DNA of 64,000 nucleotides, taken from assembly GCA_026397915.1 (NCBI GenBank), contig JAPLTX010000061.1:94731-158730 (forward strand), read 5' to 3'. Every line of letters begins with the position of its first letter. Within the stretch, counting starts at the first letter, position 1. This document shows positions 5,879 through 47,018 of the stretch, one piece after another. Both the position numbers and the translations under genes were made by a program. This DNA is from Verrucomicrobiota bacterium. Its GTDB lineage: Bacteria; Verrucomicrobiota; Verrucomicrobiia; CAIQCK01. The notes under the pieces are model-generated. The model was not told the origin of the DNA, made no database searches, and was given only the letters and a program-made list of their open reading frames with translations.

Positions 5879-6900
5879 TCACTTCATACCCAGTTGTTGC
5901 ATCATGGTATCGGGATCCTGCGCGGTGGTCAGCATCTCGCCGTAGTCAATGATGCCTTTCCGGTAAAGCTCCACCAAATGACTGTCGAGCGTGAACATGC
6001 CGTGTTTCGCGCCGGTCTGGATGTCGCTTTGGATGCGGAAGGTCTTGTTGTCGCGGATCAGCGCCTGGATGGACTGCGTGGTGATCATCACCTCGAACAC
6101 CGCCACGCGCCCCTTGCCGTCTTTCTTCGGCAGCAGCAACTGCGAGATGACCGCCTTGATCGAGCTGGCGAGCTGCGTGCGGACCTGCTCCTGCTGCGCC
6201 TGGTGTGCAGCGTGGCGAAGACCAAGTGGCCCGTTTCCGCCGCGGTGATGGCGGCCTCCATCGTTTCGAGGTCGCGCATTTCACCGACGAGAATCACATC
6301 GGGGTCCTGCCGCAAAGAGCGGCGCAACGCCTCGGAAAACGAGGTCACGTCCACGCCGATCTCGCGCTGGGTGACGATGCTCTTCTTGTTCGAGTGGTAA
6401 TACTCGATCGGATCCTCGACGGTGATGATATGGACGTCGCGCTCCTCGTTGACAACGTTCAACATCGAGGCCAGCGTCGTGGTCTTGCCGGAACCGGTCG
6501 GACCCACCACAAGGATCAAACCGCGCGGCAGGTAGAGCAAATCCTTGATGCTGGGCGGCAGGCCGATCTGATCCAGCGTCATCATCTTCGTCGGAATCTG
6601 CCGCATCACCAGCGCGAAGTTGCCGCGCTCCTTGAAAATGCTGACGCGGAACCGCGCCTTGTCCTGATAAGCAAAACCGAAATCGCTGCCGCCGACCTCG
6701 CGCGTCCGGCGCAGGTGTTCTTCGCTGGTGATGGATTTTACCAGCCGCTCCGCGTCCTCCTGTGTCACCGGCGGCACTTGTGTCAACGTCACCAGCGAGC
6801 CGTGCAAACGCACCACCGGCGACAATCCAACCCGGATGTGAAGGTCGGAGCAATTCTCCGCTACGACCAACTCCAACAACTGGTCCATTCGGACTTTCAT
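5879..6900 (-). pseudogene. pilT: twitching motility ATPase PilT, disrupted by ~47-nt internal deletion causing frameshift
   Basis: N-part (6190..6900) reads through Walker A/B to [10 protein letters not shown] then shifts frame; C-part [38 protein letters not shown]...IRDNKT continues in another frame to stop at 5879; the segment just after [10 protein letters not shown] that other PilT proteins carry (e.g. P. aeruginosa TSAAKTIDRVVDVFP, recalled from memory) is absent. Confidence 0.7.
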
Positions 6901-6951
6901 ATCGTTTCCTCTAAATCGTCTATCGTCAGCGATGATCTTTCGGTTGCGCGG

Positions 6952-8691: not shown

Positions 8692-8730
8692 CCGCTACCA
8701 TGAAAATACTTCTACTGGAAGACCGGCACT

Positions 8731-10176: not shown

Positions 10177-10181
10177 TGTCT

Positions 10182-16638: not shown

Positions 16639-17937
16639 TCAGGTTGGCTGTTGAGGATTCGCGGCCGCTCCGGGTGTTTCCCCACCGGGGCCGACGGCAA
16701 CTACACGCATCCAGGCTTGCGTCCATTCGAGCGGCAAACCGTTCCAGGCTTCCGTAGCGCCTGGCGTCACACCCGTTCCCCACGGCGTGTAATTCACTCC
16801 GTCTGTTGATTGCTCGGCGTTCAAAGATGTCGCCCCCGCGGAAAGCGAAGGCCACGTTACATCCATCCGCCAACTGTCCGGCGGGTCGCCAACAAGCGCG
16901 AGGTTGGTAATCGTTGGCGCATCGGGTGCCGATGGCGGCGGCGCTGTGGACGTTGGCGTTGGCGTCGGTGGCGGGGCCGTTGGGGTTGGTGTGGCCGATG
17001 GACTCGTTGGGGTTGGCGTTGCCGATGGACTCGTTGGGGTTGGCGTGGCCGATGGACTCGTTGGGGTTGGCGTGGCCGATGGACTCGTTGGCGTTGCCGA
17101 TGGACTCGTTGGGGTTGGTGTGACCGGCGGGGCCGTTGGGGTCGGCGAGGGGACTGTCGGTGTGGCGGTTGTGGTCGGTGTGGGCGTGGCATCAACAATG
17201 GTCATGCTCTCGGATTGTTGGACGTGATTGTTGTTCGCGTCGTAGAGGTGCGCGGTCCAAGAGTAAGCCCATGTGGGGCCGGGGCCGGCCGGGCGGGTTG
17301 GCGTGCCGGTGATGGAGCCGTTAAGATTGAAGCTCAGACCTGGAGGCAGCGGGCCGGCGTCCATCATCCACGTGTAGGGTTCCGTTCCGCCCGTGCCGGT
17401 GTGCTGGAGCGACACGGGATTGCCAACGGTTTGGTTGGGCCAGACACCGCCGTTCGTGATCGCGAGTTGGCCGCCGCTGGAAGGCGTGGGCGGCGAGGAA
17501 GGCGTGGCCGTTGGCGATCCACCGCCGCCACCGCCACCGGTCCCCGTCGGGGTTGGGGTTGCGGAGGGTGAGGCCGTTGCGGTTGACGATCCGCCGCCAC
17601 CGCCCGTCCCTGTCGCGGTCGGGGTTGCTGAAGCCGAGGCCGTTGGCGAGGCCGACGCGGTCGGTGTTGCTGTTGGCGCGGCGATGATGCGAACGCCCTC
17701 CGGTTGTTTGATGGTGTTGCCCTCGGCGTCCGTGGCGCGAATCCACCACTGGAAACGGCCCGCGACGGTCGGCGTGCCAGAGAGCACGCCAAGAAGGCTC
17801 AGTGTCAAGCCGGGCGGAAGCGAGCCATAGATTTTCTGCCACGCGTAAAGCGGCTGACCGCCCGTGGCGGCGTGGCTGAATGAATACGCGGCCCCGACGT
17901 TGCCGTCGGGCAGATGGTGTTTGGATGTGATGCGCAT
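16639..17937 (-). CDS. phage tail fiber-like protein with He_PIG (putative Ig) domains and PT-rich linkers
   Basis: LPDGNVGAAYSF...PPGLTLS...GTPT motif repeated; long PTPTSPSATPTPT linker encoded by 27-bp tandem repeats. Confidence 0.5.
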   Translation of the reverse strand: MRITSKHHLPDGNVGAAYSFSHAATGGQPLYAWQKIYGSLPPGLTLSLLGVLSGTPTVAGRFQWWIRATDAEGNTIKQPEGVRIIAAPTATPTASASPTASASATPTATGTGGGGGSSTATASPSATPTPTGTGGGGGGGSPTATPSSPPTPSSGGQLAITNGGVWPNQTVGNPVSLQHTGTGGTEPYTWMMDAGPLPPGLSFNLNGSITGTPTRPAGPGPTWAYSWTAHLYDANNNHVQQSESMTIVDATPTPTTTATPTVPSPTPTAPPVTPTPTSPSATPTSPSATPTPTSPSATPTPTSPSATPTPTSPSATPTPTAPPPTPTPTSTAPPPSAPDAPTITNLALVGDPPDSWRMDVTWPSLSAGATSLNAEQSTDGVNYTPWGTGVTPGATEAWNGLPLEWTQAWMRVVAVGPGGETPGAAANPQQPT

Positions 17938-17958
17938 GGGCGTGTGGAGGCGGCGTGT

Positions 17959-19055
17959 TTAAGGCGCGGTCGGTGTCGGCGTCGGCGGTGGGGCCGTTGG
18001 GGTTGGGGTTGCCGACGGACTCGTCGGGGTTGGTGTGACCGACGGACTCGTCGGGGTCGGTGTGGCCGACGGACTCGTCGGGGTTGGCGTGGCCGACGGA
18101 CTCGTCGGGGTCGGCGTGGCCGACGGACTCGTCGGGGTCGGCGAGGGGACCGTCGGTGTGGCGGTTGCGGTTGGTGTGGGCGGCAGCGCGGCGAGCACGA
18201 CCATGCCAACGGGATCGTCGGCGTGGTTGCCCTCGGCGTCGGTGGCGCGAACCCACCAGGTGAAATGGCCGGTGGTCGTCGGCGTGCCGGCGAGCGTGCC
18301 GTCGCTGTTGAGCGCGAGGCCCGGCGGCAGCGAGCCGGAAAGCAGCGACCAGGTGTAGGGCGCGACGCCGTCCACGACCGCGAACGCGAAGCTGTAGGCG
18401 GAGCCGACGTTGCCATCGGGCAGGTAGAAGTCGGACGTGACGCGGAAGCCGGTGCCAGTCGTTGGCGTGGGCGTGGGCGTTGGCGTCGGTGTGGCGGTGG
18501 CCGTCGGGGTCGGCGTTGGCGTGGCGGTCGCGGTCGGTGTCGGCCCTGTGCTTGTGGGCGTCGGCGTCGGGATAAATTGAACCGTGCCGAAATCGGTTGT
18601 CTCGTCGAAGCCGGCGGCAAAGACGGTCACATCTTCCTTGAGCCAGGTCTCGATGCGGCCGTCGGGCCGCTTCGCGCCGAACATGACGGTGGACGGCCTT
18701 GACTCCAAGCCCAGGAGCCACTCGGCGGAGACGGCCTCCGGGAACTTGAGGACGCATTCGAGCTTGCCGCCGCGTTTGATGAAGTCGTTTTTGAACGCGA
18801 CAAAGCCCGGATCGTCGAGCGTGCCGGTGGGGACGCCCTCGCCCGCGATGACGCCGACGACGAACTTGTAGCCCGCAACGTTGCGGTAGATGAACTTGTT
18901 GCCGGTCGTCAACGGGTTGGGCGAGAGCGGATGGATGCGCCACTCGACGGCGCTACCCTGAAAGAACTCGATGCGGTCGTAGGTTGGCTCGGCGTCGTCG
19001 TTGATGCCGGTGACGCGCTTGCCGGTGGCGGTGTTGAGATAGATGTCACGCATAG
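17959..19055 (-). CDS. phage tail fiber protein with He_PIG Ig-like domains and PT-rich linkers
   Basis: start MRDIYLNTATGKR chosen inside ORF 17959..19611; YLPDGNVGSAYSFAFAVVDGVAPYTWSLLSGSLPPGL motif; paralogous to 16639..17937. Confidence 0.5.
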
Positions 19056-19711: not shown

Positions 19712-20088
19712 TGGGGGGAAACCTCGGTAGAGTGTTGGAGCGGTGGAGTATTGGAGTGATGGAGCGGCCAGCCCTTGCCTTGCGAGCGCGCTGGATGTTT
19801 ACAGCCCCAGCGCGGAAGATTCTCTTCGTAGCCGGAAAGGTTGCGGATGGAGCCGCCGCCGTTGACGCGGCAGCCGCAGAGAACGCAGGACACATTCCCG
19901 TTGAGCGTGAGCCGGTATTCACACACGGCGCAGACAGCCTCGCGCGCTTGCCGAACATCGGCCGGCACGTGGCGGGCGGTCAGCCATGCCTGCGTGAACG
20001 ACGCGGCCATGCCGATCATCTTGCGGAGCGGGCGAAGCGTCGCGGGCGGCGCGGCGGGCGGGGCGTTGGTGTCGTCAATGATGATCAT
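19708..20088 (-). CDS. small cysteine-rich phage protein (CAVCEY...CVLCGC zinc-ribbon-like)
   Basis: start MIIIDDTNAPP overlaps stop of upstream gene (ATGA-type coupling); 7 Cys. Confidence 0.3.
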   Translation of the reverse strand: MIIIDDTNAPPAAPPATLRPLRKMIGMAASFTQAWLTARHVPADVRQAREAVCAVCEYRLTLNGNVSCVLCGCRVNGGGSIRNLSGYEENLPRWGCKHPARSQGKGWPLHHSNTPPLQHSTEVSPQ

Positions 20089-25089: not shown

Positions 25090-25126
25090 GATTGTTTCCT
25101 TTGAGTGTTGGAGTGTTGGAGTGGTG

Positions 25127-27984: not shown

Positions 27985-28050
27985 GATTGTGTCCTCGTTG
28001 GAGTGTTGGAGTTGTTGGAGTGGTGGAGTGATGGAGTGATGGAGAGGCGG

Positions 28051-29186: not shown

Positions 29187-29230
29187 AGCTGAAAGCTGAG
29201 AGCTGAGAGCTGAGAGCTGAGAGCTGAGGG
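29187..29230. repeat. tandem heptamer array (AGCTGAR)n in G-I intergenic region
   Basis: agctgaaagctgagagctgagagctgagagctgagagctgag; one of 8 such arrays confined to the prophage. Confidence 0.8.
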
Positions 29231-29735: not shown

Positions 29736-30674
29736 TCAGGCCGCGAGCTTCATACCGTTGAGCCAGTCGAGCAGCGTCACGCCCGGCTCAAGCTCCGTTG
29801 CCTTTGCCATCGTCTCGAACTGCGCGTAGGTGGCCGCGTCGTATTTGGCGCGCAACCCCTCGATGGGCACGGCCAGGCCGTTGGAATTGAGCGGCGTGCT
29901 TCGGAACCGCGCGCCCTTGTTGAGGTCGAACGTCCCCGTGCCGCCGCCCGCGCCGCCAGGGGTGTCGCTCCACTCGATCTTCTTGCCGATGTTCTTGTCG
30001 GCCATGCGCGCGGCCGTCTCCGGGCCGATGGCGATCTGCCCCGCCTCGGCTTGTTGCAGCGCCGCGCCTTCGAGCACGCGCCGGTCGTCGGGATGTTTGT
30101 CCGCGTCCGCGTCGCGGATGGCTTGAGTATCTTCTTTCGTCAGTGCTTCCTTCCAGCAACGGCAGCCCCACTCCTTAAACCGGTCCCAGAACGGCGAGTT
30201 GGCCGGCAACACTTTACCATCAAGCGCCTCGTGCGACGCGCGCACGTTCTCGTCGCCGACCGTGTGCCACTGCCAGTCGGGCATCACGTCGCGCTGCTCG
30301 TCGAGCGCCAGTGTCTGCGTGGCGTCGTAGACGTCATAGGCGTTGGTGCGCAGGACCAGTTCCGCGCGCGCGTTGGACGCCGCCAGTTGTCCGGCCCGCG
30401 TCTCGGCGTCGGCGGACGGGTCCACCATGTGCGGCGAAAACTCGTCGGCGATCCGCCCCTTGATGTCGTTCCAGTCTCCGCCCGCGGGAAGCTCCGCCGC
30501 CAGTTCTCGCACGCGGGCGATGGCGTCGGCGTGCTCCAGCGTGGCCGCCGTGAAGAGCCGCGCCCGCACCTCCGGCAGCATCGCGTCAAACACCTTGCGC
30601 GTCACCGCCGGCTTGCCGGCGAGGAACTTGACGGCCTCTTTGTTTGGAACGGATTTGAGAAGGAATGAGGGCAT
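29736..30674 (-). CDS. phage head morphogenesis protein, Mu F / SPP1 gp7 family
   Basis: 312 aa; NVRASHEALDGKVLP...WGCRCW matches Phage_Mu_F H..L.G and CRC signature. Confidence 0.6.
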   Translation of the reverse strand: MPSFLLKSVPNKEAVKFLAGKPAVTRKVFDAMLPEVRARLFTAATLEHADAIARVRELAAELPAGGDWNDIKGRIADEFSPHMVDPSADAETRAGQLAASNARAELVLRTNAYDVYDATQTLALDEQRDVMPDWQWHTVGDENVRASHEALDGKVLPANSPFWDRFKEWGCRCWKEALTKEDTQAIRDADADKHPDDRRVLEGAALQQAEAGQIAIGPETAARMADKNIGKKIEWSDTPGGAGGGTGTFDLNKGARFRSTPLNSNGLAVPIEGLRAKYDAATYAQFETMAKATELEPGVTLLDWLNGMKLAA

Positions 30675-30702
30675 GGGAAAATGGAGTGTTGGAGTGGTGG
30701 AG

Positions 30703-31149
30703 TTATGGAGTGGCGGCGTCGGCCTGATCCAGCTTGCTGGTCTTGATGCGAAAGTTCAGTTCCCTCGCGACCGCCACGGCGCGGACGATGTAGTCGGGCA
30801 CGTTGGCCGCGTGCAGCGCGCCGAGCATCGTCGCCAGTTCGTTCTCCACGTGCGGCAGGTTGGAACACGCCTCTTCGCGCTTCATGCCGTCGCCAGCGAG
30901 GTAGCGGAGCAGATACTTTTGCAGCGCGTGCTCGTAGATGTCCAAGTCCGCGTGCCGAGCCAGCGGCAGCGCGCCAACCGGGGACGGCGCTTTCATCACA
31001 TCCGTGTGCGGCGGCCTCACGGGCGGCCCTTCCGGCCCGTCGGTGATGGCTTGCAGCGCGGCGGACATTTTATTTCTAAAACCTTCACCCCGACACAGCT
31101 GACAGTTGGCGTCGTTGCAGTATGTTTGATGATCGGAAATCAGTCTCAC
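30703..31149 (-). CDS. hypothetical Cys-containing phage protein (GTG start overlapping rSAM stop)
   Basis: 148 aa; CNDANCQLC motif; GTGA overlap with upstream stop. Confidence 0.3.
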   Translation of the reverse strand: MRLISDHQTYCNDANCQLCRGEGFRNKMSAALQAITDGPEGPPVRPPHTDVMKAPSPVGALPLARHADLDIYEHALQKYLLRYLAGDGMKREEACSNLPHVENELATMLGALHAANVPDYIVRAVAVARELNFRIKTSKLDQADAATP

Positions 31150-31877
31150 GGCTCCACCTCGTTCTTGATCAGCCGGCCAAGGTTCTTCTTCTGGCGGATT
31201 TCAATGCCCGCGCATTGTAACAACCGAATCAGTCGGAGAACGTCATGCTCGTCTGGTTCCACGAGGCCGTGTCCCTTGGAGTCTGCACCAATGTTGACGA
31301 ATGTCGGACGGGCGGCCTCAATCCAGTCAGCCAACTCCACCGGGTTGAAGTCGAGGACCGGCTCTATAGTGATGAACGTCGGCATCGTCGGCCAGTAGGA
31401 CCGAATCCGCTTAAAGTGCGAGATGCGGTTGCGCGGGGCTGGTGCGTCGCCCATGACTTGATGCCACCGATTACTTTCAATCGTGACGCCTACAATGAAG
31501 TTTCCGGGACGGAAGAATCGGTTGTCCGCGAACACGTCGAACAATCGCTCAGGATTCTTCGTCTGAAAAACGAACCTGTTTTCCTTCCACTCGAAGCAGT
31601 GCTGGAGGATAAGGCGAATCCAAGACTCGGGAACGTCGGCAGCAAACAGGTCGCTGCAATGCTCGATGAAGATCGTCTTGCCGGTGCCGTAGTTGACCGC
31701 CAGTTCCTTTTTCTCCAACCGCAGCGGGCCTTTATAGTGACCCGTGCGGTAGCCGGGGCCAGACTTCACGTAGCAGTAGCCGCAACGGTGCGGGCATTCT
31801 CCGCGCAGGTGCGTGTGGGTGTGCGTCACCCAGCCTTGATACATGTTGGAACCGTCTTGGACCTTGGTTAGTGGCAT
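31146..31877 (-). CDS. radical SAM-like enzyme (CxxxCxYC; phage Gp37/Gp68 DUF5131-like)
   Basis: GECPHRCGYCYV cluster-binding motif with aromatic residue before third Cys; 243 aa. Confidence 0.6.
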   Translation of the reverse strand: MPLTKVQDGSNMYQGWVTHTHTHLRGECPHRCGYCYVKSGPGYRTGHYKGPLRLEKKELAVNYGTGKTIFIEHCSDLFAADVPESWIRLILQHCFEWKENRFVFQTKNPERLFDVFADNRFFRPGNFIVGVTIESNRWHQVMGDAPAPRNRISHFKRIRSYWPTMPTFITIEPVLDFNPVELADWIEAARPTFVNIGADSKGHGLVEPDEHDVLRLIRLLQCAGIEIRQKKNLGRLIKNEVEP

Positions 31878-31986
31878 GGTGGGGCCTCCGAAGGTAGGGA
31901 CGGACCGCCGGGCCGTCCGTTGTTTCCAGTCATCGGCGCGCCCAGCGGTCGCGCCCTACCCAGCAGAATGAAAAGAGGCTTGGTGT

Positions 31987-32178
31987 TCATCGCGCGGCCT
32001 CCTGTGTTTTGAACGCCGCCAGTATTTTCCTGAGTGCGGTCTTCTCGGCGTAGAAAACCGTTGACCGCGACAATCCCATCATCCGCGCAACCGTCCTGTG
32101 GCTGCGAATTGGTCCGAGGGCATTCGCCAGGTCTCGCGTTGCTGTTGCGGATGCTCCCCATTTTGTGGTCCTGTTCAT
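31987..32178 (-). CDS. small HTH DNA-binding protein
   Basis: 63 aa; TVARMMGLSRSTVFYAEKTALRKI helix-turn-helix; ATGA overlap with 3D-domain gene stop. Confidence 0.35.
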   Translation of the reverse strand: MNRTTKWGASATATRDLANALGPIRSHRTVARMMGLSRSTVFYAEKTALRKILAAFKTQEAAR

Positions 32179-32677
32179 CGCGCCAGTTCCAGTCCCCCAT
32201 CCGCTCTGCGGTAGGTTCCCGCCGCGAGGCGCTGGCCGGCGGCGATGATCTCGGCCATGCGGCGCTCGAACCGCTCGTCGTCGAGCTTCCGCTGCCACTC
32301 GCGGCGCGTGAGGATCGTCACCGGCATCCATCGCCAGCCGAATCGCTTTGCCTCTTCGTGTGTCGCGAAGAGCAGGTCGAGGCGGTTTGCGCCTTTGATG
32401 TCTCGGCCGGTGTCGTCGGCGCGGTTCCAACGGCCGTTGACGTGGACCATCGAGCCGAGCGGGATGCGGCGAGGGTCCACGGCCACGATCTGGCCGACCG
32501 CCTGCCGCCCCGTGGCCGTGAGGCCGCAGGCATTCGGCCCGCAGCAGATTCGGCACGGGCAATAGGCGGTGACGCGGACCCAGCGGGTCGAGGCGGCGAG
32601 GGCGGGAGATGGGAGATGGCAGATGGCAGATAGGAGGAGCAGGGCAGTCCCCAACTTCCAGCTTCCAACTCCCATCT
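32175..32677 (-). CDS. secreted 3D-domain (MltA/RlpA-like) cell-wall hydrolase, candidate endolysin
   Basis: 167 aa from MGVGSWKL...ALA/AS signal peptide; VRVTAYCPCRICCGPNACGLTATG...GSMVHVNGRWNRADDTG 3D domain. Confidence 0.55.
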
Positions 32678-33771: not shown

Positions 33772-34344
33772 TCAGAACGGGATGTCGGCGGTTAGGGCTG
33801 CCGGCTGAGGGCTGAAAGCTGAAGGCTGAGAGCTGACAGCTTTGCGCCGATTCCTCACCGTGTAAACGAGACACCAGACCTGACGCTCGGTTGCCTCGGC
33901 CAGGCTGCACTTGAACTGCCTGCGGCAGATGGCGGCGGCGTAGCTCTCGTGCAGGCCGCGCTCGCGGAGGGACTCGCGCAGCTTGAACATCGCCAGCCGG
34001 ATCGGCTCGGTCGCCACGCGTTCCTCCGCGCGCCGCGCCGCCGCGGCGTTGCCTTTGAGCATAAGGAACCGGCCCTCGATGAGTTTGTATTCGCGCTGTG
34101 TCGCGCCACGCAAAGACGTGTAGCCGCACGCAAACATTTGCTGGGTGTGCCGCCAGTCGTCCAACTCGCCCTGGCTGGCGGCGGGCCGGCCATAGACCTC
34201 CTCGAACGCCTCGCGCGCTAGGATGCAGAGGTGCGCCTTCTGGCCGTTCTCGAGAGGCGCGCTGGGCGACGGCACGGGCCGTCCGCTGCCGTGGCGAAAC
34301 ACGGCGCGGAAGTCGTCGCTCATGATGTCGGCGGGGATGATCAT
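33772..34344 (-). CDS. GemA-like (Mu gp16 family) regulatory protein, tentative
   Basis: 190 aa; KAHLCILAREA...DDWRHTQQMFACGYTSLRGATQREYKLIEG pattern resembles Mu GemA family. Confidence 0.3.
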   Translation of the reverse strand: MIIPADIMSDDFRAVFRHGSGRPVPSPSAPLENGQKAHLCILAREAFEEVYGRPAASQGELDDWRHTQQMFACGYTSLRGATQREYKLIEGRFLMLKGNAAAARRAEERVATEPIRLAMFKLRESLRERGLHESYAAAICRRQFKCSLAEATERQVWCLVYTVRNRRKAVSSQPSAFSPQPAALTADIPF

Positions 34345-34375
34345 ATTGAAGCTCCCAGCTTTCAGCTCTCAGCTT

Positions 34376-34630
34376 TCAGTTCTCATTTGCGGGAGTGATG
34401 GAGTGTTGGAGCGATGCTTGTTCCAACGCGCGCGCAATTCTATCCACCGCGTCGGTTACAAGGTCGTGATATGAAGCCTGCCTTCCCGCCAAGGGAACAA
34501 CGCAAGTCTTTGAGACCCCGCCTCCGGCGTTGGTGATGGCCACGTAGATTACAACTCCGTTTTCTTCTAACGCCGTCTTCGCCAGCTCCTGGCCAAGGTT
34601 GAAGCAAGTGTTTATATACACAGCCTTCAT
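34376..34630 (-). CDS. small hypothetical phage protein
   Basis: 84 aa from MKAVYINTCFNLGQ; ATGA coupling to upstream gene. Confidence 0.25.
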   Translation of the reverse strand: MKAVYINTCFNLGQELAKTALEENGVVIYVAITNAGGGVSKTCVVPLAGRQASYHDLVTDAVDRIARALEQASLQHSITPANEN

Positions 34631-35529: not shown

Positions 35530-35928
35530 TCAGGTTTGGGAGTTGGGAGTTGGCAGATGGGAGTTGGATGGGGCCGGGGCGGTTGTTTGCAGTTGGGAGA
35601 TTTCGCTCGCGTAGCGCGTCTGGTAGCGGTGCAACATGCCGAACGCCCCGGCGAGACGTTGGCGGGCTTGCTCCAGTTGCAGCAGCTCGTCTTCTTCCAG
35701 GAGCGTGCCGACGGCGTCGGACTCGTAGAGGCGCTCCTCGATGAGGAGAGCAGCGGCCACCATTTTCGCGGCGGCGGCCGTGGCGCGGTCCTGCGGCAGC
35801 GGGGAGCGGGGGGCGGGCGGAACGGGCGGGCAGGAGAAGTTCCAAAGCCGGATGAACAGCTTTGCCATCAGCACTCCACCAGCCACCGCGCACACGGCCA
35901 ACAAGATAGATGCAATCCAAGGGTTCAT
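35530..35928 (-). CDS. hypothetical phage membrane protein
   Basis: 132 aa; N-terminal TM; start within repeated RBS-start cassette. Confidence 0.25.
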   Translation of the reverse strand: MNPWIASILLAVCAVAGGVLMAKLFIRLWNFSCPPVPPAPRSPLPQDRATAAAAKMVAAALLIEERLYESDAVGTLLEEDELLQLEQARQRLAGAFGMLHRYQTRYASEISQLQTTAPAPSNSHLPTPNSQT

Positions 35929-36125
35929 CGTGTTGCCTCCGATTTGGAACGGATGTTTACGGCCGTCATCAGACAGAATTCCACCCGGATAGCGGCCTCC
36001 TCGAAGTCCTTGAGGAACTTCCGGCCTTCAGTGTCGAGTTTGTTGTTCTTGATCTCGCGCAGCACTGCGGTGAGTTGGTCGTAGGCGAGACGGAGCCTGA
36101 ATGCCTGAACGTCGTTGATCTTCAT
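35925..36125 (-). CDS. small hypothetical early protein ending ...SEATR
   Basis: start MKINDVQAF in RBS-start cassette; ATGA overlap. Confidence 0.25.
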   Translation of the reverse strand: MKINDVQAFRLRLAYDQLTAVLREIKNNKLDTEGRKFLKDFEEAAIRVEFCLMTAVNIRSKSEATR

Positions 36126-36355
36126 CGTGTTGCCTCCGATGTCTGTGACGGAACTGGCAAGGGGCAATAATCCACAAATGTGATCTCCCCGGTTATGAAG
36201 CCGCTTGAAATCTTGAAGTCGGCTGATCTAAAGCCGCACGTGCAGCCGTGGAATTTTCGTTCGAGCCTCCGAGCCTCTTTCTGACTTCCCATGCCGCACA
36301 CAGCCACGGTGAACGCGGACAGTTCCATCTCTTCGCCAAGAATAATGGCTTTCAT
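36122..36355 (-). CDS. small hypothetical early protein ending ...SEATR
   Basis: 77 aa; cassette start/stop overlap. Confidence 0.25.
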   Translation of the reverse strand: MKAIILGEEMELSAFTVAVCGMGSQKEARRLERKFHGCTCGFRSADFKISSGFITGEITFVDYCPLPVPSQTSEATR

Positions 36356-36552
36356 CGTGTTGCCTCCGGTTGAGATTCCGTGTAGAGCCTGGTGATCTGT
36401 TTCTTAACCGTTCTGAACCCATTATCCGCGATCTTCAGCGCCAGCGTTTCCGCATTTGGGATGCCGAGCGGAGGCAGCCAAACATCAAGCTCCAGCGGGT
36501 TGAGCTTCCCACCGCGGAACAACTCGATATATAGATGCACTTCAGTTTTCAT
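36352..36552 (-). CDS. small hypothetical early protein ending ...PEATR
   Basis: 66 aa; cassette start/stop overlap. Confidence 0.25.
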   Translation of the reverse strand: MKTEVHLYIELFRGGKLNPLELDVWLPPLGIPNAETLALKIADNGFRTVKKQITRLYTESQPEATR

Positions 36553-36771
36553 CTACGCAGCCTCCTGTGTTTTGAGAAAGCGAGCGCCGTCCTGTCGAAG
36601 ATTCGAGTGCGAACGAAACCCGCAACTCGCCGTGTCCCACATCGCTGACACGAATCGGAGTCCACGCTTGAAGAACCGGCGCTGTCTGGCGTTGCCGCGA
36701 ATGTGGCACCCGTCCGAATGTCCAACGTCGTTGAATGGCAATGAAGTGTTTGCGGTGATGGTCTGTCTCAT
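36553..36771 (-). CDS. small hypothetical early protein
   Basis: 72 aa; ATG overlaps MuB-like stop (ATGA). Confidence 0.25.
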   Translation of the reverse strand: MRQTITANTSLPFNDVGHSDGCHIRGNARQRRFFKRGLRFVSAMWDTASCGFRSHSNLRQDGARFLKTQEAA

Positions 36772-37871
36772 CGTGTTGCCTCCGATTTGGCGGTGATCTC
36801 GCGGGCGATGTCGTCGAGCGTTGCGCCCTTCCTCAGCGAGATGGCGAGCGGCTTGATCTTCACGGCCTCGCGCACGAGGATGTTGACGAACTGTCGGAGG
36901 TCAATGGCCTCGTCTCCGTGGTCGTGCGCCACGCGGCGGCAGACGCGGTTGACGAACTTGAAGTAGCCGTGCGAGAGCGCAAACGGCTCGATGGCGGCGA
37001 CGGCCTTCTCCAGCACGCCCTTCCCGAACGCGATCCGGTCCTTGAACATCAACTCCACGTCGCCCTGTTCGATGACGCTGAGGTCAATGCGCTCGTGCAT
37101 CCGATTGTGCGTGAGTTGCTGCGCCTCGAAGTAGCCCTTCGACACCTCCAGCCGCTGCATGAGCGTGTTCTGCGCCGAAACAATGAACTCGCCCGGTGTC
37201 TGATTCACCAGCGTCTTGACGAGGTTCAACATGCGCGGTGTCAGGTGATGGGCCTCGTCAATGCCGATGCAGAGGCGCTTCTTGTTCAGGTGCTCGACGA
37301 GCTTGCGCATCCGCTGGGTCGTGGAGACGGGCATCTCGAACTGGACGTTCTTGTCCGGCTCCTTGGGCTTGAAGCCGAGCGCGCCGAGAATCCGCCCCAG
37401 CATCTCGTGATCGGTCCACGTCTCGTCGGCCTCGGTGAACGTGACGCGCACCGGATACTTCATCTCCAGGGACTGGCGGGCCTTGGTCTTGCCGCTGCCG
37501 CTCGGCCCCTGCATCCAGATCAGCCGCGTGTTGTCCTGTTCGCGCATGATCTCCAAGAACGCCACCCGCAGCCGCATGCACGGCGTGAGATCGTGGTTGA
37601 TCGGCTCTTCGTCGGGGGCCGACTTCTCCAGGTTGTCCATCGTGCTGGCGACGGTGCGATAGCGCAGCACCCAGCTTTCGAGGTCGCCCGCCGAGTATTC
37701 CCCGGCGAGGATGGCGTTGAAGGTCTTGGCGCTGCCGAGGTCGGCGAACTCGCGCGCGAGCTTGTCGCGCGTCCATCCTTTGTCGAGTTGGTAACGCTCG
37801 GCGCGCTGGGCGAGCGCGCGCAACTCCGCGCGCACCGGGTCGATCTGCGGGTCATTGTGGGTCGTATTCAT
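36768..37871 (-). CDS. MuB-like AAA+ ATPase, transposition target DNA activator
   Basis: 367 aa; N-terminal HTH then Walker A MQGPSGSGKTKA; immediately downstream of transposase as in Mu A-B. Confidence 0.7.
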   Translation of the reverse strand: MNTTHNDPQIDPVRAELRALAQRAERYQLDKGWTRDKLAREFADLGSAKTFNAILAGEYSAGDLESWVLRYRTVASTMDNLEKSAPDEEPINHDLTPCMRLRVAFLEIMREQDNTRLIWMQGPSGSGKTKARQSLEMKYPVRVTFTEADETWTDHEMLGRILGALGFKPKEPDKNVQFEMPVSTTQRMRKLVEHLNKKRLCIGIDEAHHLTPRMLNLVKTLVNQTPGEFIVSAQNTLMQRLEVSKGYFEAQQLTHNRMHERIDLSVIEQGDVELMFKDRIAFGKGVLEKAVAAIEPFALSHGYFKFVNRVCRRVAHDHGDEAIDLRQFVNILVREAVKIKPLAISLRKGATLDDIAREITAKSEATR

Positions 37872-37888: not shown

Positions 37889-39880
37889 TCAGGTTTCGAT
37901 CAGGTCACCGCGGGCGCGGGCTTCGGCCTCGCGTTTGGCGATGTAATCGGCCGCGGCAGTGCGGTCGAAAGAGACGCGGGAAACGGCCGGGGCCGTTCCT
38001 CGCGTTGAAAATGTGGCCGGCTCGGTATCGGTGTCTCTCGCGTTTGCGGCGGACTCGCCGAGCCGGCTCACCGTGTCGTGGTGTGTAAGTGGAGATTGGA
38101 GTTTGGAGATGGCGACGCGGCTGACGTTGCCCCGGCCGTCGCTGTCGAGGTGGACAACGGCGGCGCGTCCGGTGCTCTCGATGGCCGCGAAGCTCGAGCG
38201 CACCTGGGCGGTGCGGAGCTTGCGCGCGGCGGTGGCCGGCGAACGGTAACCCTCGCAATCAACGAACTGCGGCCCGTCGGCACTCCAGGGAGCGATGCCG
38301 ATGAACTGGAACCGCTTCCAGTTCTCGCGATTCATCGGGCGCGTTTCGTTATTGAAGAGCGCACAGCCGGCCTCCGGCGCGAGCGGGTCGAACCGCGCGA
38401 TGACGCGGTGGCCGCGCTCGATGAACGGAAAAGCCGCCGTCGCCACGTGGAACCGAAACGGGCGCGCATAAGGCGCAACGGAAACCTGCACATGGCCCGC
38501 GAGTTTGGTGCCGACGCCGACCTCGCTGATGGTCGGCTTGAAAAACCAGAACTCCTCCTCGCTCACCGCCGGCAGCGATCCGCCGCGCGCGGCCATGTCG
38601 CGCTCCCACGTCACGTCGGGAGCTTCCGCTTTGAGGCCGTCAACCTTGCGCGCCCGCTTGTTCAGGAACTGGCAGCCGGCGACAAGCTTTTGGATCAGCA
38701 CCTCGCCCCACGGAATGAAGCCGCACTTGGCCGGATCGGCCTTGCCCTTGTTCACGGCCATCATGTCATCGGTAGGCTGCTCGTATTCGCCGCGCGTCTT
38801 GCCGATGCGCACGCCATGCACGCCCATGATCTTGTGGAACGGCCGAAACGAGGACTCGATGCCGCCCTTGGCGTTGGAGGAGAAAACGTGGTCCACGGGG
38901 ATGACGCTGGCGATGCCGCCCCAGCGGTTGCCGGCGTCGTCAATCTGAATACCGTCGAGCGCGTTGTTTTCCCAGCGACCGCGTTCGTCGCGGAAACGGC
39001 CAAACCGCCCCCAGCGCCGCGTGAGAAGTTCCTTGAACCGCGCGATGTCCTCGGCGCGGTAGCTGTCCGCAAAGCGCGCGATGGGATAGACGCCGAGCCA
39101 CTTGCCGCTGCGCACGTCGCGCGCCATCAGGATTTGACGCCCCACGCGCCAGTAGCCGTCCGGGTCCATCCAGAAAAACGGAACGTCGGTTGACACGTCG
39201 TCAAACTCGATGATGTCCCCGCTGTTCACAGGCACCCATGCGCCGTGGTCGTCGTAACCGTAAAAGCCGCGGCGCACGCTGAAGACGATGCTCCGCAGCG
39301 CGTCGCGGCTGCGCGCCGCTGCCATTTCCTCCTGCGTCACGCGCACGTCGCGCATGATGCTTTGCGGGTATCGGCCCGTCAGCCGGTTCGCGGCGAGGGC
39401 CTCGCGGACCTCCGGCCGGCACACCGGCGAGTCGGCCATCAACTCGATGCCCATTGGCACGCTCTCGGTCTTTAGGACAAACGTGCGGGCGAGCTTCTTC
39501 TCTGCGTCGTTGAGGTTCACTTTTTTCTTTCGCCCGCAGTTCTTGTATTGCCGGCCGAGCTTTTCCTCGCCGCCGGCATCGAGCAGCCGCGCGTAGCGCA
39601 ACAGCGTGCAGTGCGGCTTGCCGAGTATCCGAGCCGCCTCCGCCGCGCTCGACGCCATCGGCGGCTGGCCGTTCTCTCCGGGCTTTTGCAGCGCGCGCCA
39701 CTCGCGCACGAGCGACGCGCGGCGTTGCTTCCAGGCGTTGTCCAAGGACTGCGGAGTCGGAACCGCCGCCGCGGCGTCGCTGGAAACAATCGCGCCCGGA
39801 GGTCGCGATCCACCTGTAGCGGCGGTCTCTGACCGCCGATCCGGCGCGGGCGAGGAGTTCGCCCCCGCGCAGTGTTGCAT
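37889..39880 (-). CDS. Mu-type DDE transposase (MuA-like)
   Basis: ORF 37889..40132; central rve/DDE core (SGDIIEFDDV..., ...VIPVDHVF...), N-terminal HTH; start uncertain (39880 or 39658); ~590-664 aa. Confidence 0.75.
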   Translation of the reverse strand: MQHCAGANSSPAPDRRSETAATGGSRPPGAIVSSDAAAAVPTPQSLDNAWKQRRASLVREWRALQKPGENGQPPMASSAAEAARILGKPHCTLLRYARLLDAGGEEKLGRQYKNCGRKKKVNLNDAEKKLARTFVLKTESVPMGIELMADSPVCRPEVREALAANRLTGRYPQSIMRDVRVTQEEMAAARSRDALRSIVFSVRRGFYGYDDHGAWVPVNSGDIIEFDDVSTDVPFFWMDPDGYWRVGRQILMARDVRSGKWLGVYPIARFADSYRAEDIARFKELLTRRWGRFGRFRDERGRWENNALDGIQIDDAGNRWGGIASVIPVDHVFSSNAKGGIESSFRPFHKIMGVHGVRIGKTRGEYEQPTDDMMAVNKGKADPAKCGFIPWGEVLIQKLVAGCQFLNKRARKVDGLKAEAPDVTWERDMAARGGSLPAVSEEEFWFFKPTISEVGVGTKLAGHVQVSVAPYARPFRFHVATAAFPFIERGHRVIARFDPLAPEAGCALFNNETRPMNRENWKRFQFIGIAPWSADGPQFVDCEGYRSPATAARKLRTAQVRSSFAAIESTGRAAVVHLDSDGRGNVSRVAISKLQSPLTHHDTVSRLGESAANARDTDTEPATFSTRGTAPAVSRVSFDRTAAADYIAKREAEARARGDLIET

Positions 39881-40150
39881 GAAGCCAATAACCGAGGCCG
39901 GCAGACGATCTCCATCTGCGCCATGCTGCGCGCTGCCGAATCGGCGGTCAGAGACTGCCGCTGCAGAAAGCTGAGAGCTGAAAGTTGAAAGCTGAGGACT
40001 GCGATCTCCCGCCGCAACGTCGGGGCGCGTTGCGGCGGGCGGGGGTTGGTTCTGGCCTGTGAACGGCGCGGGCACAATCGCCCCGGTCAACTCCGCGCCG
40101 CTCCGCGTCTTGTTGGTTATAGAATCGTGCATGGCCAGATGGCGGGAACG

Positions 40151-40423
40151 TCAGGGGTTTGGAAGTGTGCCGAGCAACGCGGCGAATCCGCCCGCTCTCC
40201 AGGCTTTGGCAATCTGCTTGATGTGCCGCGGATTCGTGTCATTCGCGTAACACGCGCCGGCCAGCGTGTCGCCCGCGACCATCTCGTCGTAGATGCCTTG
40301 CAGGAGTTTCAACCGGCCGATGGCGACCTTTAATTGATGGTTCGTCGGGCCAACCGGACGCCGGGGGACTTCCGCGCTCACAAACAATCGCCGGAGAACT
40401 TCTTTACGCCGGTCGCCCTTCAT
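40151..40423 (-). CDS. small hypothetical early protein
   Basis: 90 aa between ParB-like gene and transposase. Confidence 0.25.
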   Translation of the reverse strand: MKGDRRKEVLRRLFVSAEVPRRPVGPTNHQLKVAIGRLKLLQGIYDEMVAGDTLAGACYANDTNPRHIKQIAKAWRAGGFAALLGTLPNP

Positions 40424-41265
40424 CGCGCCTCCTCGACTTTGCGGATGGAGCTTTTGAAGAACTTCATGTCGTCGGGTTCGAGGCCCGCCAGCGCCTGAGC
40501 CAGCCGGGCGAGTTTCTCGCGCCGCATGGTTAGGTTGGTGATCTTGGCAATGTAGGGAATGCGGTTGCTGATCGTGCGGACCATGTCATCCCACAAGAGC
40601 ATCTGCTGATGAACAACCCGCTTCTTGCCCTTCGTCGCTTCCCGTCCGGCCACCGCGGCGAGGATTTGCTGAAAGCCGGCCTTGCCTCCAAGCAGCAGCG
40701 GCTCGTATTCAGCCTTGATGTCAGGGCGGGCCTTGAACAGCTTGTGTATCTTCCCCGCGAGGCCGATTACGTCTGTCGAAATGCCCAGCCTGGAGGATAC
40801 GTCAGCCTGGGTTTTGCACCCTTCCACCCCCCGGAAGCCTAATTTTTCGGCTTTCGAGGTTTCTTGGGCTTTTTGGCCATTTAAGTTCGCCAAACTGCGT
40901 TTTCGGCTTTCGGCGAAAATCGGCTCAAGAAGGGTGTAGAGGAGGTAGGCGAGGGCGCTTTTGCTGAAGTGCCGGCGGGCCATCAGGCTCTCGCCGACGA
41001 TGGTGGCGGACTCGCCATCGCCGACCTGACGGACGGGCACTTCGGAGAGTCCGGCGGCCCGCGCCGCCCGGCTCCGGTGCCGGCCATCCACGATCCGGTT
41101 CTTGCTGTCAATCAGCACCGGATAGTCCAAGCCGCGCGCGCGGATGCTGGCGATCATGGCCAGGAAGTGCGGATCGTTCTCGGCGAGCATCGGGCCGAGG
41201 TCGGCCGTGGGATGGTGGGTGAGTTGATCCAGATTCATCATGACGATCTTGTTCGGTGTCTCCAT
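40420..41265 (-). CDS. ParB-like nuclease-domain protein
   Basis: 281 aa from METPNKIV; ...DYPVLIDSKNRIVDGRHRSRAARAAG ParB/Srx box II-like motif. Confidence 0.6.
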   Translation of the reverse strand: METPNKIVMMNLDQLTHHPTADLGPMLAENDPHFLAMIASIRARGLDYPVLIDSKNRIVDGRHRSRAARAAGLSEVPVRQVGDGESATIVGESLMARRHFSKSALAYLLYTLLEPIFAESRKRSLANLNGQKAQETSKAEKLGFRGVEGCKTQADVSSRLGISTDVIGLAGKIHKLFKARPDIKAEYEPLLLGGKAGFQQILAAVAGREATKGKKRVVHQQMLLWDDMVRTISNRIPYIAKITNLTMRREKLARLAQALAGLEPDDMKFFKSSIRKVEEAR

Positions 41266-41342
41266 GTTCTTCTTTCCTTTTGGGGTTGGTTGTTGGCAGT
41301 GACTGCGGCAAAAGTTGAGAGCTGAAAGCTGAAAGCTGAGGG

Positions 41343-41558
41343 TTAAGAGTTGGGGGCGGGGTTGGTTGGAGTGTTGGAGTTGTGGAGTGATGGAGTGTTG
41401 GCGGCCTCTCCAAACCATTCGCATCCGCAGCCGGCCTCGCGGCACTCGCGCTCGAAGCAATCGTGCTTGTAGCGGTCGTGGCCGCAGACGCAGGGGCGAA
41501 GCAGCGCGGCGCTGCCGGGAGGAAGATGGTCGGCGATGATTTGAAACCCCGTCTTCAT
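41343..41558 (-). CDS. small Cys/His-rich hypothetical protein
   Basis: PCVCGHDRYKHDCFERECREAGCGCEW; uncertain. Confidence 0.2.
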   Translation of the reverse strand: MKTGFQIIADHLPPGSAALLRPCVCGHDRYKHDCFERECREAGCGCEWFGEAANTPSLHNSNTPTNPAPNS

Positions 41559-42025
41559 GGTTGCTCCGGTAGGGCGCGACCGCTGGGCGCGCCGAGGGGG
41601 TCGGATCGGCCGGCCCAGCGGTCCGTCCCTACCGCCGCCGCGCTCGTTTCCACGATGAGACTCCACAGCCGGTCCACGATCTGGCGCGTTTCGGTCCAGC
41701 GCGTGGCGGCGGCGTTGTGCGCGAGGGCCAGCGCCTCCAGCTCGCCGCCGATGTGCTCCAGACCGTCATCGCGCTCGATGCGCTCCAGTAGCGCGCGCAG
41801 CCCGCCCCATCGGCCCTGCATCTCGCGGCACTCGCTGATCAGGCGCTTCAGTTCGATCTGGCGAGGGGAAAGGGCCGTCAAGGCTGAGGGCTGAGGGCTG
41901 AAGGCTGAAGGCTGAAGGCCGACCGATGAGGGCTGAAGGCTGAGGGCTGAAGGCTGAAGGCCGACCGATGAGGGCTGAAGGCTGAGGGCTAAAGGCTGAC
42001 CACTGATCGCTGGCTTGGTGTTCAT
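41555..42025 (-). CDS. hypothetical protein whose N-terminal region is encoded by heptamer tandem repeats
   Basis: ATG overlaps upstream stop (ATGA); LQPSSVG repeats from 7-nt DNA repeat; C-terminal helical region. Confidence 0.2.
   Translation of the reverse strand: MNTKPAISGQPLALSLQPSSVGLQPSALSLQPSSVGLQPSAFSPQPSALTALSPRQIELKRLISECREMQGRWGGLRALLERIERDDGLEHIGGELEALALAHNAAATRWTETRQIVDRLWSLIVETSAAAVGTDRWAGRSDPLGAPSGRALPEQP
41878..42000. repeat. long tandem heptamer array (GGCTGAR)n with 54-nt higher-order duplication
   Basis: ggctgagggctgaaggctgaaggccgaccgatgag unit repeated twice. Confidence 0.8.
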
Positions 42026-44334: not shown

Positions 44335-44769
44335 ATGTTTACGGCAGCCATCAGCTCTCAGCTCTCAGCTCTCAGCCTTCCACTCCTTACCGCCGCGCCG
44401 ATCACACTCGATAACTCCACCGTCGTCACCGTCGGCATGATCGTGGCCGTGGCGGCGATGGTGAAGTGGGCGACGGACATCTGGGCCAACATCCGGCCCA
44501 ACCGCTCCTTTGACGACAAGCTGGTGGCGGCGCTGACGGCGTGCCAGGGGCAGTGCTCTAAAAATCTCAAGGTGGCCACCGACGACATCGAGGTGATCCA
44601 GGCCGACCGCCGTCGCAACACGACGGACCTCTGGAAGGAAATCAACGGCCTGAAGGAAACGATCCAGACGTTCTCGAACGACTTGAACCGCGCGCTGGGC
44701 CGGCTGGAGGGGCGGGCGGAAATGCTCGACGCGGTGCGCGACGTGATCGCGAAGAAAACGAAAGACTAA
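44335..44769 (+). CDS. membrane protein, holin-like candidate
   Basis: 144 aa with TM segment VVTVGMIVAVAAMVKW; upstream late-promoter-like motif. Confidence 0.3.
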   Translation: MFTAAISSQLSALSLPLLTAAPITLDNSTVVTVGMIVAVAAMVKWATDIWANIRPNRSFDDKLVAALTACQGQCSKNLKVATDDIEVIQADRRRNTTDLWKEINGLKETIQTFSNDLNRALGRLEGRAEMLDAVRDVIAKKTKD

Positions 44770-44806
44770 CCCCCAACGGCGCGCCCAGCGGTCGCGCCCT
44801 ACCTAC

Positions 44807-46058: not shown

Positions 46059-46270
46059 GCGCGACCCGACATTTACCGGCGCGGCGGGCGCTCCGCCGAC
46101 TGGCGGCGGCGTCGGCGCAGATGCTCGGCGGGGACGTGGCCGTGTGCCTGACAGTGGCCGGGCCGAAGGGCGCGCGCGTGGAGCGTTACCTGTGCAGCGC
46201 GGTGGACGCGATGGCGCTGGCGACGATGCTGCAACTGGCGGTGGCGCGGGCCGCGAAGGCTGAGAGCTGA
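46055..46270 (+). CDS. small hypothetical protein
   Basis: 71 aa; ATGA overlap with upstream stop. Confidence 0.2.
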   Translation: MSATRHLPARRALRRLAAASAQMLGGDVAVCLTVAGPKGARVERYLCSAVDAMALATMLQLAVARAAKAES

Positions 46271-46296
46271 AAGCTGAAAGCTGAAAGCTGAAAGCT
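46257..46296. repeat. tandem heptamer array (AGCTGAA)n upstream of terS
   Basis: gctgagagctgaaagctgaaagctgaaagctgaaagct. Confidence 0.8.
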
Positions 46297-46302
46297 AAAA
46301 CA

Positions 46303-47013
46303 ATGAGCGACACAACCTACAAGGGCAAGATCGGCCGGCTGCCGCGCGCGATGCGCGACGAGGTGTGCCGCCGGATGCGGGACGGCGATAGCGACAGGAG
46401 GATTCTCGTCTGGCTGAACGCCGACGCCGAGGCGAAGAAGCGGATGGAGACCTACTTCGACGGCCAGCCGCTGAACGGAAGCAACATGAGCGAGTGGCGC
46501 GCGGCCGGCTACCAGGACTGGAAGCGGCAGCAGGACCGCGACGCGCAAACCGAGAAGCTTTGCAAGTGGGCGATGAATGCCGTGGACGGCAAGCCCGGCG
46601 ACAAGGCGAGCGCCATCGCGGCGGGCCAGTTGTGCTCCGCGCTGGAGGATTTTGATGTCGAGAAGTTGAAGGATTTGCTGGCGACCGATCCGAGCAATCA
46701 TTCGGAGATTATCAAGAGCCTGGCAAGGCTGCGCACGAGCGACGCGTCGGTGAAGAACGCGGAGGTGAACGCGGTAAAGTTGCAGCAGGCCGAGGAAGCG
46801 CTCCGCCAGGCCAACGAGCGGCTCGTGATGGAGAGGGGGGAGTTTGAAATCCGTTACTGCCAGGGAGTCCTGAAGGGAATCGCGGACGCCGAGGCGCATC
46901 GCATCGCGGGGCTGAACATCTCCAACGACGAGAAGATTGCGTTGATGCGCAAGCACTACTTCGCGGACGTGGACGCGCTCCAAAAATCCGGCGCGGTGAA
47001 GCTGCCGGATTAA
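46303..47013 (+). CDS. putative terminase small subunit (Mu gp27/DUF3486-like)
   Basis: 236 aa; basic N-terminal DNA-binding-like region GRLPRAMRDEVCRRMRDG; directly upstream of terL. Confidence 0.45.
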   Translation: MSDTTYKGKIGRLPRAMRDEVCRRMRDGDSDRRILVWLNADAEAKKRMETYFDGQPLNGSNMSEWRAAGYQDWKRQQDRDAQTEKLCKWAMNAVDGKPGDKASAIAAGQLCSALEDFDVEKLKDLLATDPSNHSEIIKSLARLRTSDASVKNAEVNAVKLQQAEEALRQANERLVMERGEFEIRYCQGVLKGIADAEAHRIAGLNISNDEKIALMRKHYFADVDALQKSGAVKLPD

Positions 47014-47018
47014 CCCCG

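Follow-up and report, generated by a model that had tools for sequence, protein, structure and literature searches.

We examined a 64,000-nucleotide (nt) stretch of DNA, referred to below as the window, from a Verrucomicrobiota bacterium (GenBank assembly GCA_026397915.1, contig JAPLTX010000061.1, positions 94,731 to 158,730 of the forward strand). Our subject is a gene in this window that encodes a 243-amino-acid (aa) protein of the radical S-adenosylmethionine (radical-SAM) superfamily. The surrounding element is a Mu-like prophage in which Gam, the Mu I protease, the Mu T head protein, and Portal_Mu were all detected, and whose AAA_22 ATPase is read as MuB-like. Three minus-strand open reading frames (ORFs) of the same orientation span positions 30703-32178. 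In the order of minus-strand transcription, this region comprises a 3D-domain protein gene, a 63-aa ORF, a 110-nt spacer, the 243-aa ORF, an ORF of either 121 or 148 aa, a 28-nt gap, and a Mu F-like gene. The 3D-domain protein, a probable lysin (32175-32675, minus strand; PF06725, E 5.1e-11), forms the upstream flank of the slot, and a 166-aa gene is called at its position in both locus L001 and locus L002. The downstream flank is the Mu F-like head morphogenesis protein (29736-30674, minus strand; PF04233, E 1.6e-13; phrog_220, E 6.9e-27). These two flanking matches bear out the location of the radical-SAM gene, between the 3D-domain lysin and Mu F, that was given in an initial annotation made from the sequence alone. 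In the closest genomic relative (L083, where the ORF lies at 6895-10434), the Mu F-like domain forms the N-terminal part of a 1179-aa ORF, which is much longer than the 312-aa Mu F protein here.

The radical-SAM gene (31146-31877, minus strand) is real and full length, with an ATG start and a good ribosome-binding site, GGAGG, located 7 nt upstream. Its product carries the sequence CPHRCGYC at residues 28-35 (codons at 31773-31796, minus strand), near the N-terminus as originally described, and C28, C32, and C35 are the predicted ligands of a [4Fe-4S] cluster. The motif is invariant in an alignment of 31 sequences. This alignment has 39 invariant columns, and all 39 residues are present in the 243-aa protein; they include C28, C32, C35, Y34, H19, H23, D76, H93, Q105, K107, E134, E172, and a D199-S200-K201 motif. 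The CX3CX2C spacing occurs in 120 of 120 database homologues and in 104 of 107 locus ORFs, with two of the three exceptions truncated by contig ends, and a tyrosine stands on each side of the third cysteine (Y-C-Y) in 211 of 224 family members. Conservation of the cysteine motif is far above chance. The gene might instead have proved to be a degraded fragment of a host gene or to have a motif that is not shared by its homologues, and neither was found.

The protein passes the Pfam cut-off for DUF5131 (PF07505, the Gp37/Gp68 family) with 38.2 bits against a threshold of 28.9, and the alignment pairs its residues 55-177 with positions 59-166 of the 243-position profile. NCBI names an identical protein “DUF5131 family protein,” and there is also a match to phrog_2045, a group of unknown function, while no NCBIfam model was matched at E<=1. 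An AlphaFold2 model (predicted local distance difference test score [pLDDT] 92.8; predicted template modeling score [pTM] 0.90) has alternating strands and helices, and it indicates the (beta/alpha) barrel expected of a radical-SAM enzyme. When this model was compared with the structure of spore photoproduct lyase (SplB, 4fhc), 203 of the 243 residues could be aligned, at 13% identity. No relatives with solved structures were found in the PDB by sequence, even when a profile was used, and a fold search of a viral structure library returned only unnamed or generic radical-SAM matches. Given the Pfam match, the conserved cysteine triad, and the predicted fold, the proposal that this is a radical-SAM protein of the DUF5131 kind holds.

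Homologues of this protein are numerous. A word-indexed search returned 1347 of them. When 1.84 billion cluster representatives (clusters defined at 50% identity) were searched exhaustively with a profile, the number of matching clusters was 925 at E<=1e-30, rising to 2092 at E<=1e-10 and to 6125 at E<=1e-3. The 243-aa protein belongs to a tight, compact clade of its own that is related to DUF5131. Relatives were found on 267 viral contigs of IMG/VR and, among species-representative genomes, in 36 loci. By record title, the carrier genomes include Verrucomicrobia, Planctomycetota, Syntrophorhabdus, Desulfobacteraceae, Kiritimatiellia, Lentisphaerae, Gallionella, Methanobacteriota, Bathyarchaeia, and Thermoplasmata. 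As we read these titles, many of them stand for lineages known chiefly as anaerobes, and groundwater or sediment is the source of several. Only eight of 50,697 deposited phage records matched, all at <=35% identity. The clade therefore lacks a close relative among deposited phage genomes; it resides almost entirely in uncultured phages.

The features shared with DUF5131 are the Pfam match, the N-terminal three-cysteine motif, a length of about 240 aa, and occurrence in phages and prophages. A protein that is annotated as gp37/gp68 in the archaeal virus ANMV-1 also has a CX3CX2C motif (GLCPEACEYCYA) and aligns at 25% identity. However, only residues 55-177 match the DUF5131 profile, no NCBIfam model is matched, the close relatives form a separate clade (925 of the 6125 clusters), and no TcmP-type partner is present. 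An adjacent TcmP partner is a feature that we take, from NCBIfam descriptions, to be typical of many DUF5131 genes. A wider cysteine spacing, which we had presumed for canonical DUF5131 proteins, was not used as an argument because the ANMV-1 protein has CX3CX2C. In the RadicalSAM.org classification, DUF5131 is Megacluster-5-2, beside spore photoproduct lyase in 5-3. The initial annotation had described the function in phages as unknown, and this agrees with our literature text searches, in which we found no functional study of DUF5131; the family was named only in classification work, PF07505 was not mentioned, and TcmP appeared only in gene tables. The 243-aa protein adds a new member to a family that is known but uncharacterised.

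The ORF that ends at position 30703 can be read as 148 aa from a GTG at 31149 or as 121 aa from an ATG at 31068. The longer reading had been interpreted as a Cys-containing protein that is translationally coupled to the radical-SAM gene through a GTGA. The overlap between this GTG and the TGA stop codon does exist in the sequence, but the coupling is probably an artefact of reading the longest ORF. The first 27 codons of the 148-aa reading (31069-31149) hold its only cysteine cluster, CX4CX2C. They have a GC content of 0.44, with flat values of 0.48, 0.41, and 0.44 at the first, second, and third codon positions, whereas the third-position value (GC3) of the following codons is 0.85-0.88. This Cys-bearing stretch is missing from six of six homologues. 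Because the 27 leading codons look non-coding and are absent from all homologues, we prefer the shorter reading, which is also the one annotated by NCBI (P0121). The supposed 148-aa Cys-rich protein is most likely an acidic, helical protein of 121 aa (30703-31068, minus strand). An AT-rich spacer (31069-31145, minus strand; GC 0.44), without counterpart in the homologues, then separates the radical-SAM stop codon from the probable next start.

The 121-aa family has seven members among 5.8 billion proteins, and these share no conserved Cys and no invariant Gly. The modelled core consists of three bundled helices whose structural matches are all generic, and the sequence has no Pfam, PHROG, NCBIfam, or PADLOC match. 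In four loci (L083, L084, L114, and L120), the start of the 121-aa homologue overlaps the stop codon of the radical-SAM gene. In L119, which has the same Mu-like backbone, the radical-SAM gene is absent, and the lysin-to-Mu F slot instead holds a gene for a 224-aa Pol X-like protein (7330-8004 of that locus; DNA_pol_B_thumb, E 5e-8; palm, E 1e-3) that the 121-aa homologue overlaps by 4 nt. The homologue is absent from the other fetched loci. Since it is retained in L119, where it overlaps a Pol X-like gene in place of the radical-SAM gene, we conclude that the 121-aa gene is a lineage-specific phage backbone gene that is coupled to any preceding gene, rather than a dedicated radical-SAM partner. 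On the basis of its composition, the absence of its N-terminus in homologues, and this retention without the enzyme, the Cys-rich partner was rejected. The three-gene functional cassette of helix-turn-helix (HTH), radical-SAM, and Cys-rich proteins is likewise abandoned, because the 121-aa protein persists without the enzyme in L119 and the HTH ORF was found in no fetched related locus. Both the cassette and its Cys-rich member are artefacts of reading longest ORFs.

The proposed 63-aa HTH protein upstream of the enzyme fared little better. The ORF exists (31987-32178, minus strand), but its best HTH score is below threshold (Sigma70_r4, 18.7 bits against a cut-off of 24.1; E 1.3e-3), and its composition is weak for a coding sequence (GC 0.58; GC3 0.65). 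A tblastn search of 118 fetched loci found no homologue beyond contigs L001 and L002, which encode an identical product; the ORF is called as a gene in L002 and not in L001. Its coding status is uncertain.

The spacer between this ORF and the radical-SAM gene contains a 68-nt GC-rich hairpin (31893-31960, minus strand), a palindromic element that is repeated and stops a short distance upstream of the GGAGG. When a 126-nt stretch was folded, the minimum free energy was -58.8 kcal/mol (z -3.45). A second full copy is present at 41568-41633 (z -4.3), and one arm recurs at 44784-44803. The window contains four matches to the hairpin arm, compared to 0.01 expected, and all are inside the prophage. 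A 40-aa ORF (31868-31990) that was reported by one gene caller overlaps the hairpin and has no counterpart in the four close relatives examined. Because the arm of the spacer hairpin recurs at 41.6 kb and 44.8 kb, this ORF is best read as part of the repeat element, and it is probably not a gene. A scan of the 29-34 kb region with Rfam returned only chance-level matches.

The composition of the locus bears on the origin of the enzyme. GC content is 0.54-0.57 across the radical-SAM gene and 0.58 in the 63-aa ORF, compared to 0.64-0.71 in the flanks. This lower GC content fits a horizontally acquired accessory gene, which perhaps arrived together with the 63-aa HTH-like ORF. The gene upstream of the enzyme also varies: it is the 63-aa ORF here, a DUF2786 gene in L083, and an unannotated 117-aa gene in L084 and L114, while nothing intervenes in L120. 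In L084, a 127-aa ORF with a palm domain only (5263-5646 of that locus) lies upstream of the radical-SAM gene in the lysin-to-Mu F slot, and it is a possible Pol X-like remnant. The slot acts as a cargo site of variable content for nucleic-acid enzymes. A scan for promoters and terminators found no minus-strand promoter-like site and no bounding terminator-like site, with the limit that this consensus scan is not tuned to Verrucomicrobia. Because no such sites were found, co-transcription is our default reading, and the enzyme is probably transcribed with the late genes.

Next to the radical-SAM gene, no neighbour is conserved across the family. BLASTP clustering of the neighbours at positions up to ±6 in 107 loci produced no cluster present in more than nine loci, and in a Pfam census of 100 dereplicated loci, which covered 414 neighbours at positions ±1 to ±3, no family exceeded four members at any one position pair. 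Cys-rich proteins were no commoner at position +1 than elsewhere. A co-conserved, TcmP-like three-Cys partner, which the initial annotation had proposed to look for in relatives, did not emerge: the downstream ORF here has no NCBIfam or Pfam match, and no neighbour was recurrent in the 100 loci. Matches to DNA methyltransferase families number 14 among the 414 neighbours (DNA_methylase, 6; N6_N4_Mtase, 7; MT-A70, 1; counted as matches, not loci). Other neighbour families are ParB_N, PAPS reductase, PD-(D/E)XK nucleases, DnaB, primases, RecA, DNA polymerase A, RlaP, RtcB, RNA ligase, Thg1, and QueD. Some neighbours are ASCH-domain genes, as in L053 (E 2.3e-8), which is within a three-locus BLASTP cluster. 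Furthermore, the 117-aa protein that adjoins the enzyme in L114, L084, and L025 has no Pfam or BLASTP match of its own, but its hhalign probability of 76% to the ASCH-like neighbours is suggestive of an ASCH-like protein.

Leads to a substrate come from four architectures of the same tight clade, which we drew from the 150 best profile hits. In one (P0132), a CHC2 zinc finger of the DnaG type (E 3.7e-19) is fused to the N-terminus; it is represented by three 358-aa members from different sources, one of them on a 53-kb contig. Another (P0160; three members) has a C-terminal ASCH domain that scores 21.5 bits against a cut-off of 21.2 when scanned alone. The CHC2 zinc finger binds template DNA in primase and the ASCH domain is PUA-like; both are nucleic-acid modules. 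In a third (P0162; 576 aa; three members), an intein with a LAGLIDADG endonuclease splits the cluster motif, with ..CSHRCSY before and CYVQ.. after the insertion. The third cluster cysteine is the +1 extein residue, and this predicted iron ligand would therefore double as the +1 splicing nucleophile. Finally, six members (P0129) have an 85-residue, Cys-containing C-terminal tail.

There is one experimental precedent, among those that we found, for the type of chemistry that we propose. Pseudomonas phage M6 gp53 is a radical-SAM isomerase resembling spore photoproduct lyase that participates in thymidine hypermodification, where it acts on a DNA base adduct after replication (PMC8989533). It is phage-encoded, related in appearance to the lyase, and directed at a DNA base (PMC8989533). 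However, M6 gp53 is a larger protein whose cluster motif starts at residue 125, and its gene cluster includes a kinase, an amino-acid transferase, and a pyridoxal phosphate (PLP) enzyme (PMC8989533), none of which was detected among the prophage ORFs tested here. None of the eight GenBank phage matches is from a Pseudomonas phage.

Because of the zinc-finger and ASCH fusions, the enzyme's structural closeness to spore photoproduct lyase, the replacement of the enzyme by a Pol X-like protein in the same slot, and the M6 gp53 precedent, these data suggest a nucleic-acid substrate as the best-supported inference. The intein at the third cluster cysteine and the replication and DNA-methylase neighbours were also counted toward this link. 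By analogy with the superfamily, C28, C32, and C35 would hold a [4Fe-4S] cluster whose fourth iron binds SAM. Reductive cleavage of SAM would then produce a 5'-deoxyadenosyl radical that abstracts a hydrogen atom from the substrate. The protein is predicted to be a bare barrel core without an accessory domain, and its nearest structural relatives mostly act on macromolecules. The substrate would most likely be a nucleic acid, with DNA the first candidate, and modification of a base or sugar seems more likely than photoproduct repair. Its gene occupies a variable cargo slot between lysin and Mu F and is probably transcribed with the late genes.

With moderate confidence, we read the 243-aa protein as a radical-SAM enzyme that is functional and stands alone, a member of a compact DUF5131-related clade, with nucleic acid as its likely substrate and an acquired cargo gene as its source. 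The 925 clusters at E<=1e-30 and the 39 invariant alignment columns speak for selection on the enzyme. More tentatively, and as a possibility that we do not consider probable, the clade may comprise phage-borne, solo, DNA-targeting enzymes that install or remove an undescribed DNA (or RNA) base or sugar modification, for example to evade restriction, with the DnaG zinc-finger and ASCH fusions being variants that bring along a targeting or reader domain. Nucleic-acid modification was among the functions suggested at the outset, and it gains indirect support from these results. In all, the observation of the initial annotation is partly confirmed and its interpretation partly supported.

Several points weigh against this reading. 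The zinc-finger and ASCH fusions are rare, with three members each, and the ASCH fusion is borderline in score. Genes for a companion pathway (hydroxymethyl-deoxyuridine kinase or deazaguanine genes) were not detected among the prophage ORFs tested. The isoelectric points of the family are only mildly basic (median 8.2; range 5.5-9.6). The match to DUF5131 is confined to fewer than the full set of residues (55-177), and the general Pfam profile Radical_SAM (PF04055) scores 20.2 bits over residues 28-173, below its cut-off of 29.5 (E 7e-4); a precomputed match to this profile is present in some homologues. The nucleic-acid families among the neighbours were counted without a background and are context rather than enrichment, and phage early regions are rich in DNA-metabolism genes anyway. 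Likewise, consensus scans for promoters and terminators say little for Verrucomicrobia.

Other explanations for the enzyme were also weighed. It is doubtful, but not far-fetched, that the protein acts on nucleotides or small molecules in phage-host conflict, whether by making viperin-like chain terminators, by QueE-like ring chemistry, or by destroying a host signal, from a hotspot of defence and counter-defence genes. Weak matches to the 241-position models of component B from two PADLOC systems (PDC-M41, E 4.6e-9; PDC-M30, E 4.8e-8) would be consistent with such a role, but they extend over residues 58-141 only, both systems are candidates without validation, and no second component was found here. 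Variable cargo loci often hold conflict genes, and the slot does differ among sister prophages, which have either the radical-SAM enzyme or a Pol-beta-fold protein together with varying upstream genes. However, most members of the family have replication and modification genes around them on viral contigs and do not lie in defence islands, and the fusions to a DnaG zinc finger and to ASCH speak for a nucleic-acid polymer. QueD was one of 141 neighbours, but no NCBIfam match to viperin or QueE models was obtained, and the combination of a QueE model match with FolE, QueD, and QueC companions was not found for the 243-aa protein, so that the QueE check proposed at the outset came back negative.

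A true spore photoproduct lyase activity, meaning light-independent reversal of ultraviolet (UV) thymine photoproducts in phage DNA, is unlikely. The protein resembles SplB in that both would be radical-SAM enzymes on DNA, they occupy neighbouring RadicalSAM.org megaclusters, and both have a CxxxCxYC motif. Many homologues carry the JGI label “DNA repair photolyase,” and the slot in the sister prophage of L119 holds a repair-type Pol X-like protein. We take the lyase motif to be followed by a tyrosine, presumably as in the C-x-Y-C-Y pattern of the 211 family members noted above. The lyase motif itself reads CMGHCHYC (PMC8989533). However, SplB is about 100 residues longer (340 versus 243), the identity between them is the 13% given above, curated lyase models in NCBIfam are unmatched, and no PDB match was found by sequence. 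In addition, the carriers include groundwater Verrucomicrobia, Syntrophorhabdus, Bathyarchaeia, Methanobacteriota, and Desulfobacteraceae, for which we consider selection by UV light implausible; because of these probable habitats, strict UV photoproduct repair is an unlikely role. Less probable still is a protein- or peptide-directed enzyme, either a glycyl-radical activase or a maturase of peptides that are made by the ribosome and modified after translation (RiPPs), with the 121/148-aa protein or the 40-aa ORF as its substrate. Such an enzyme could be imagined from the 40-aa ORF directly upstream, the small protein directly downstream, and the Cys-rich tail of some relatives (P0129). However, the 40-aa ORF coincides with the repeated hairpin and is not conserved in the close relatives, and the 121-aa protein lacks an invariant Gly or Cys, is kept without the enzyme, and is absent from other fetched loci. 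Pfam detects no SPASM or other accessory domain of the type expected for a RiPP maturase, there is no +1 enrichment of Cys-rich neighbours, and glycyl-radical enzymes are not among the listed neighbour families. A match to the NrdG or PflA models together with a nearby glycyl-radical enzyme was not found, which also answers the NrdG check that had been proposed. Least of all do we expect a decaying or non-functional passenger gene: its GC content is below that of the flanks and its function is unknown, but the gene is full length, has all 39 invariant residues and a good ribosome-binding site, and yields a high-confidence model.

The only radical-SAM enzymes that we found reported to act on DNA are spore photoproduct lyase and phage M6 gp53 (PMC8989533). 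If the proposed nucleic-acid substrate is correct, phage biology would gain, through this clade, a form of radical chemistry on DNA or RNA that is widespread. The fusions to the DnaG zinc finger and the ASCH domain provide a concrete, testable lead toward DNA, and they make the clade a reasonable target for enzymology. Within the window, the gene is an ordinary accessory gene that is not itself surprising, and the notion of a three-gene cassette should be dropped.

Several other features of the prophage were observed. A ParB-like protein is encoded at 40420-41460, and a 747-aa ORF at 37889-40132, at the position expected for the transposase, has no Pfam or PHROG match. The Portal_Mu gene (48704-50341; E 4.6e-54) is on the plus strand, opposite to the radical-SAM gene region, and is overlapped from upstream by a 564-aa ORF (47019-48713), a possible terminase without a Pfam or PHROG match. 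Together these two genes (region 46303-50341) lie beyond the repressor-like region, unlike the placement between lysin and Mu F in phage Mu. At the left end of the prophage, 10 copies of a 27-nt tandem repeat with 60-80% identity occur at 16880-17190 and 17924-18186, around an ORF at 17321-18943.

Short repeats were also noted. The heptamer GCTGARA, or its complement, recurs in tandem arrays, with 20 pattern matches compared to 0.01 expected; the arrays occupy mostly short intergenic gaps and are confined, within the window, to the prophage (29188-29229, 33804-33838, 34353-34380, 39963-39997, 41314-41341, 41876-42012, 44349-44376, and 46259-46300). Arrays of the octamer GGAGTGNT give 19 matches compared to 0 expected. 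In the prophage they lie in intergenic gaps at 19729-19764, 25102-25121, 28017-28044, 30683-30710, 34392-34411, and 41368-41403, and one of these arrays falls within the 28 nt that separate Mu F from the 121-aa gene. Because such arrays also occur in host DNA (4132-4167, 57106-57133, and 62731-62793), they are a genome-wide rather than a phage feature. Finally, the 23-nt sequence TCATCGTGTTGCCTCCGATTTGG is present in four copies of 87-100% identity (35925-35947, 36122-36144, 36352-36374, and 36768-36790) where one gene of the early operon meets the next. GGAGG and then ATGA are contained in the reverse complement of this sequence, and it appears to be a reused junction of stop codon, ribosome-binding site, and start codon.

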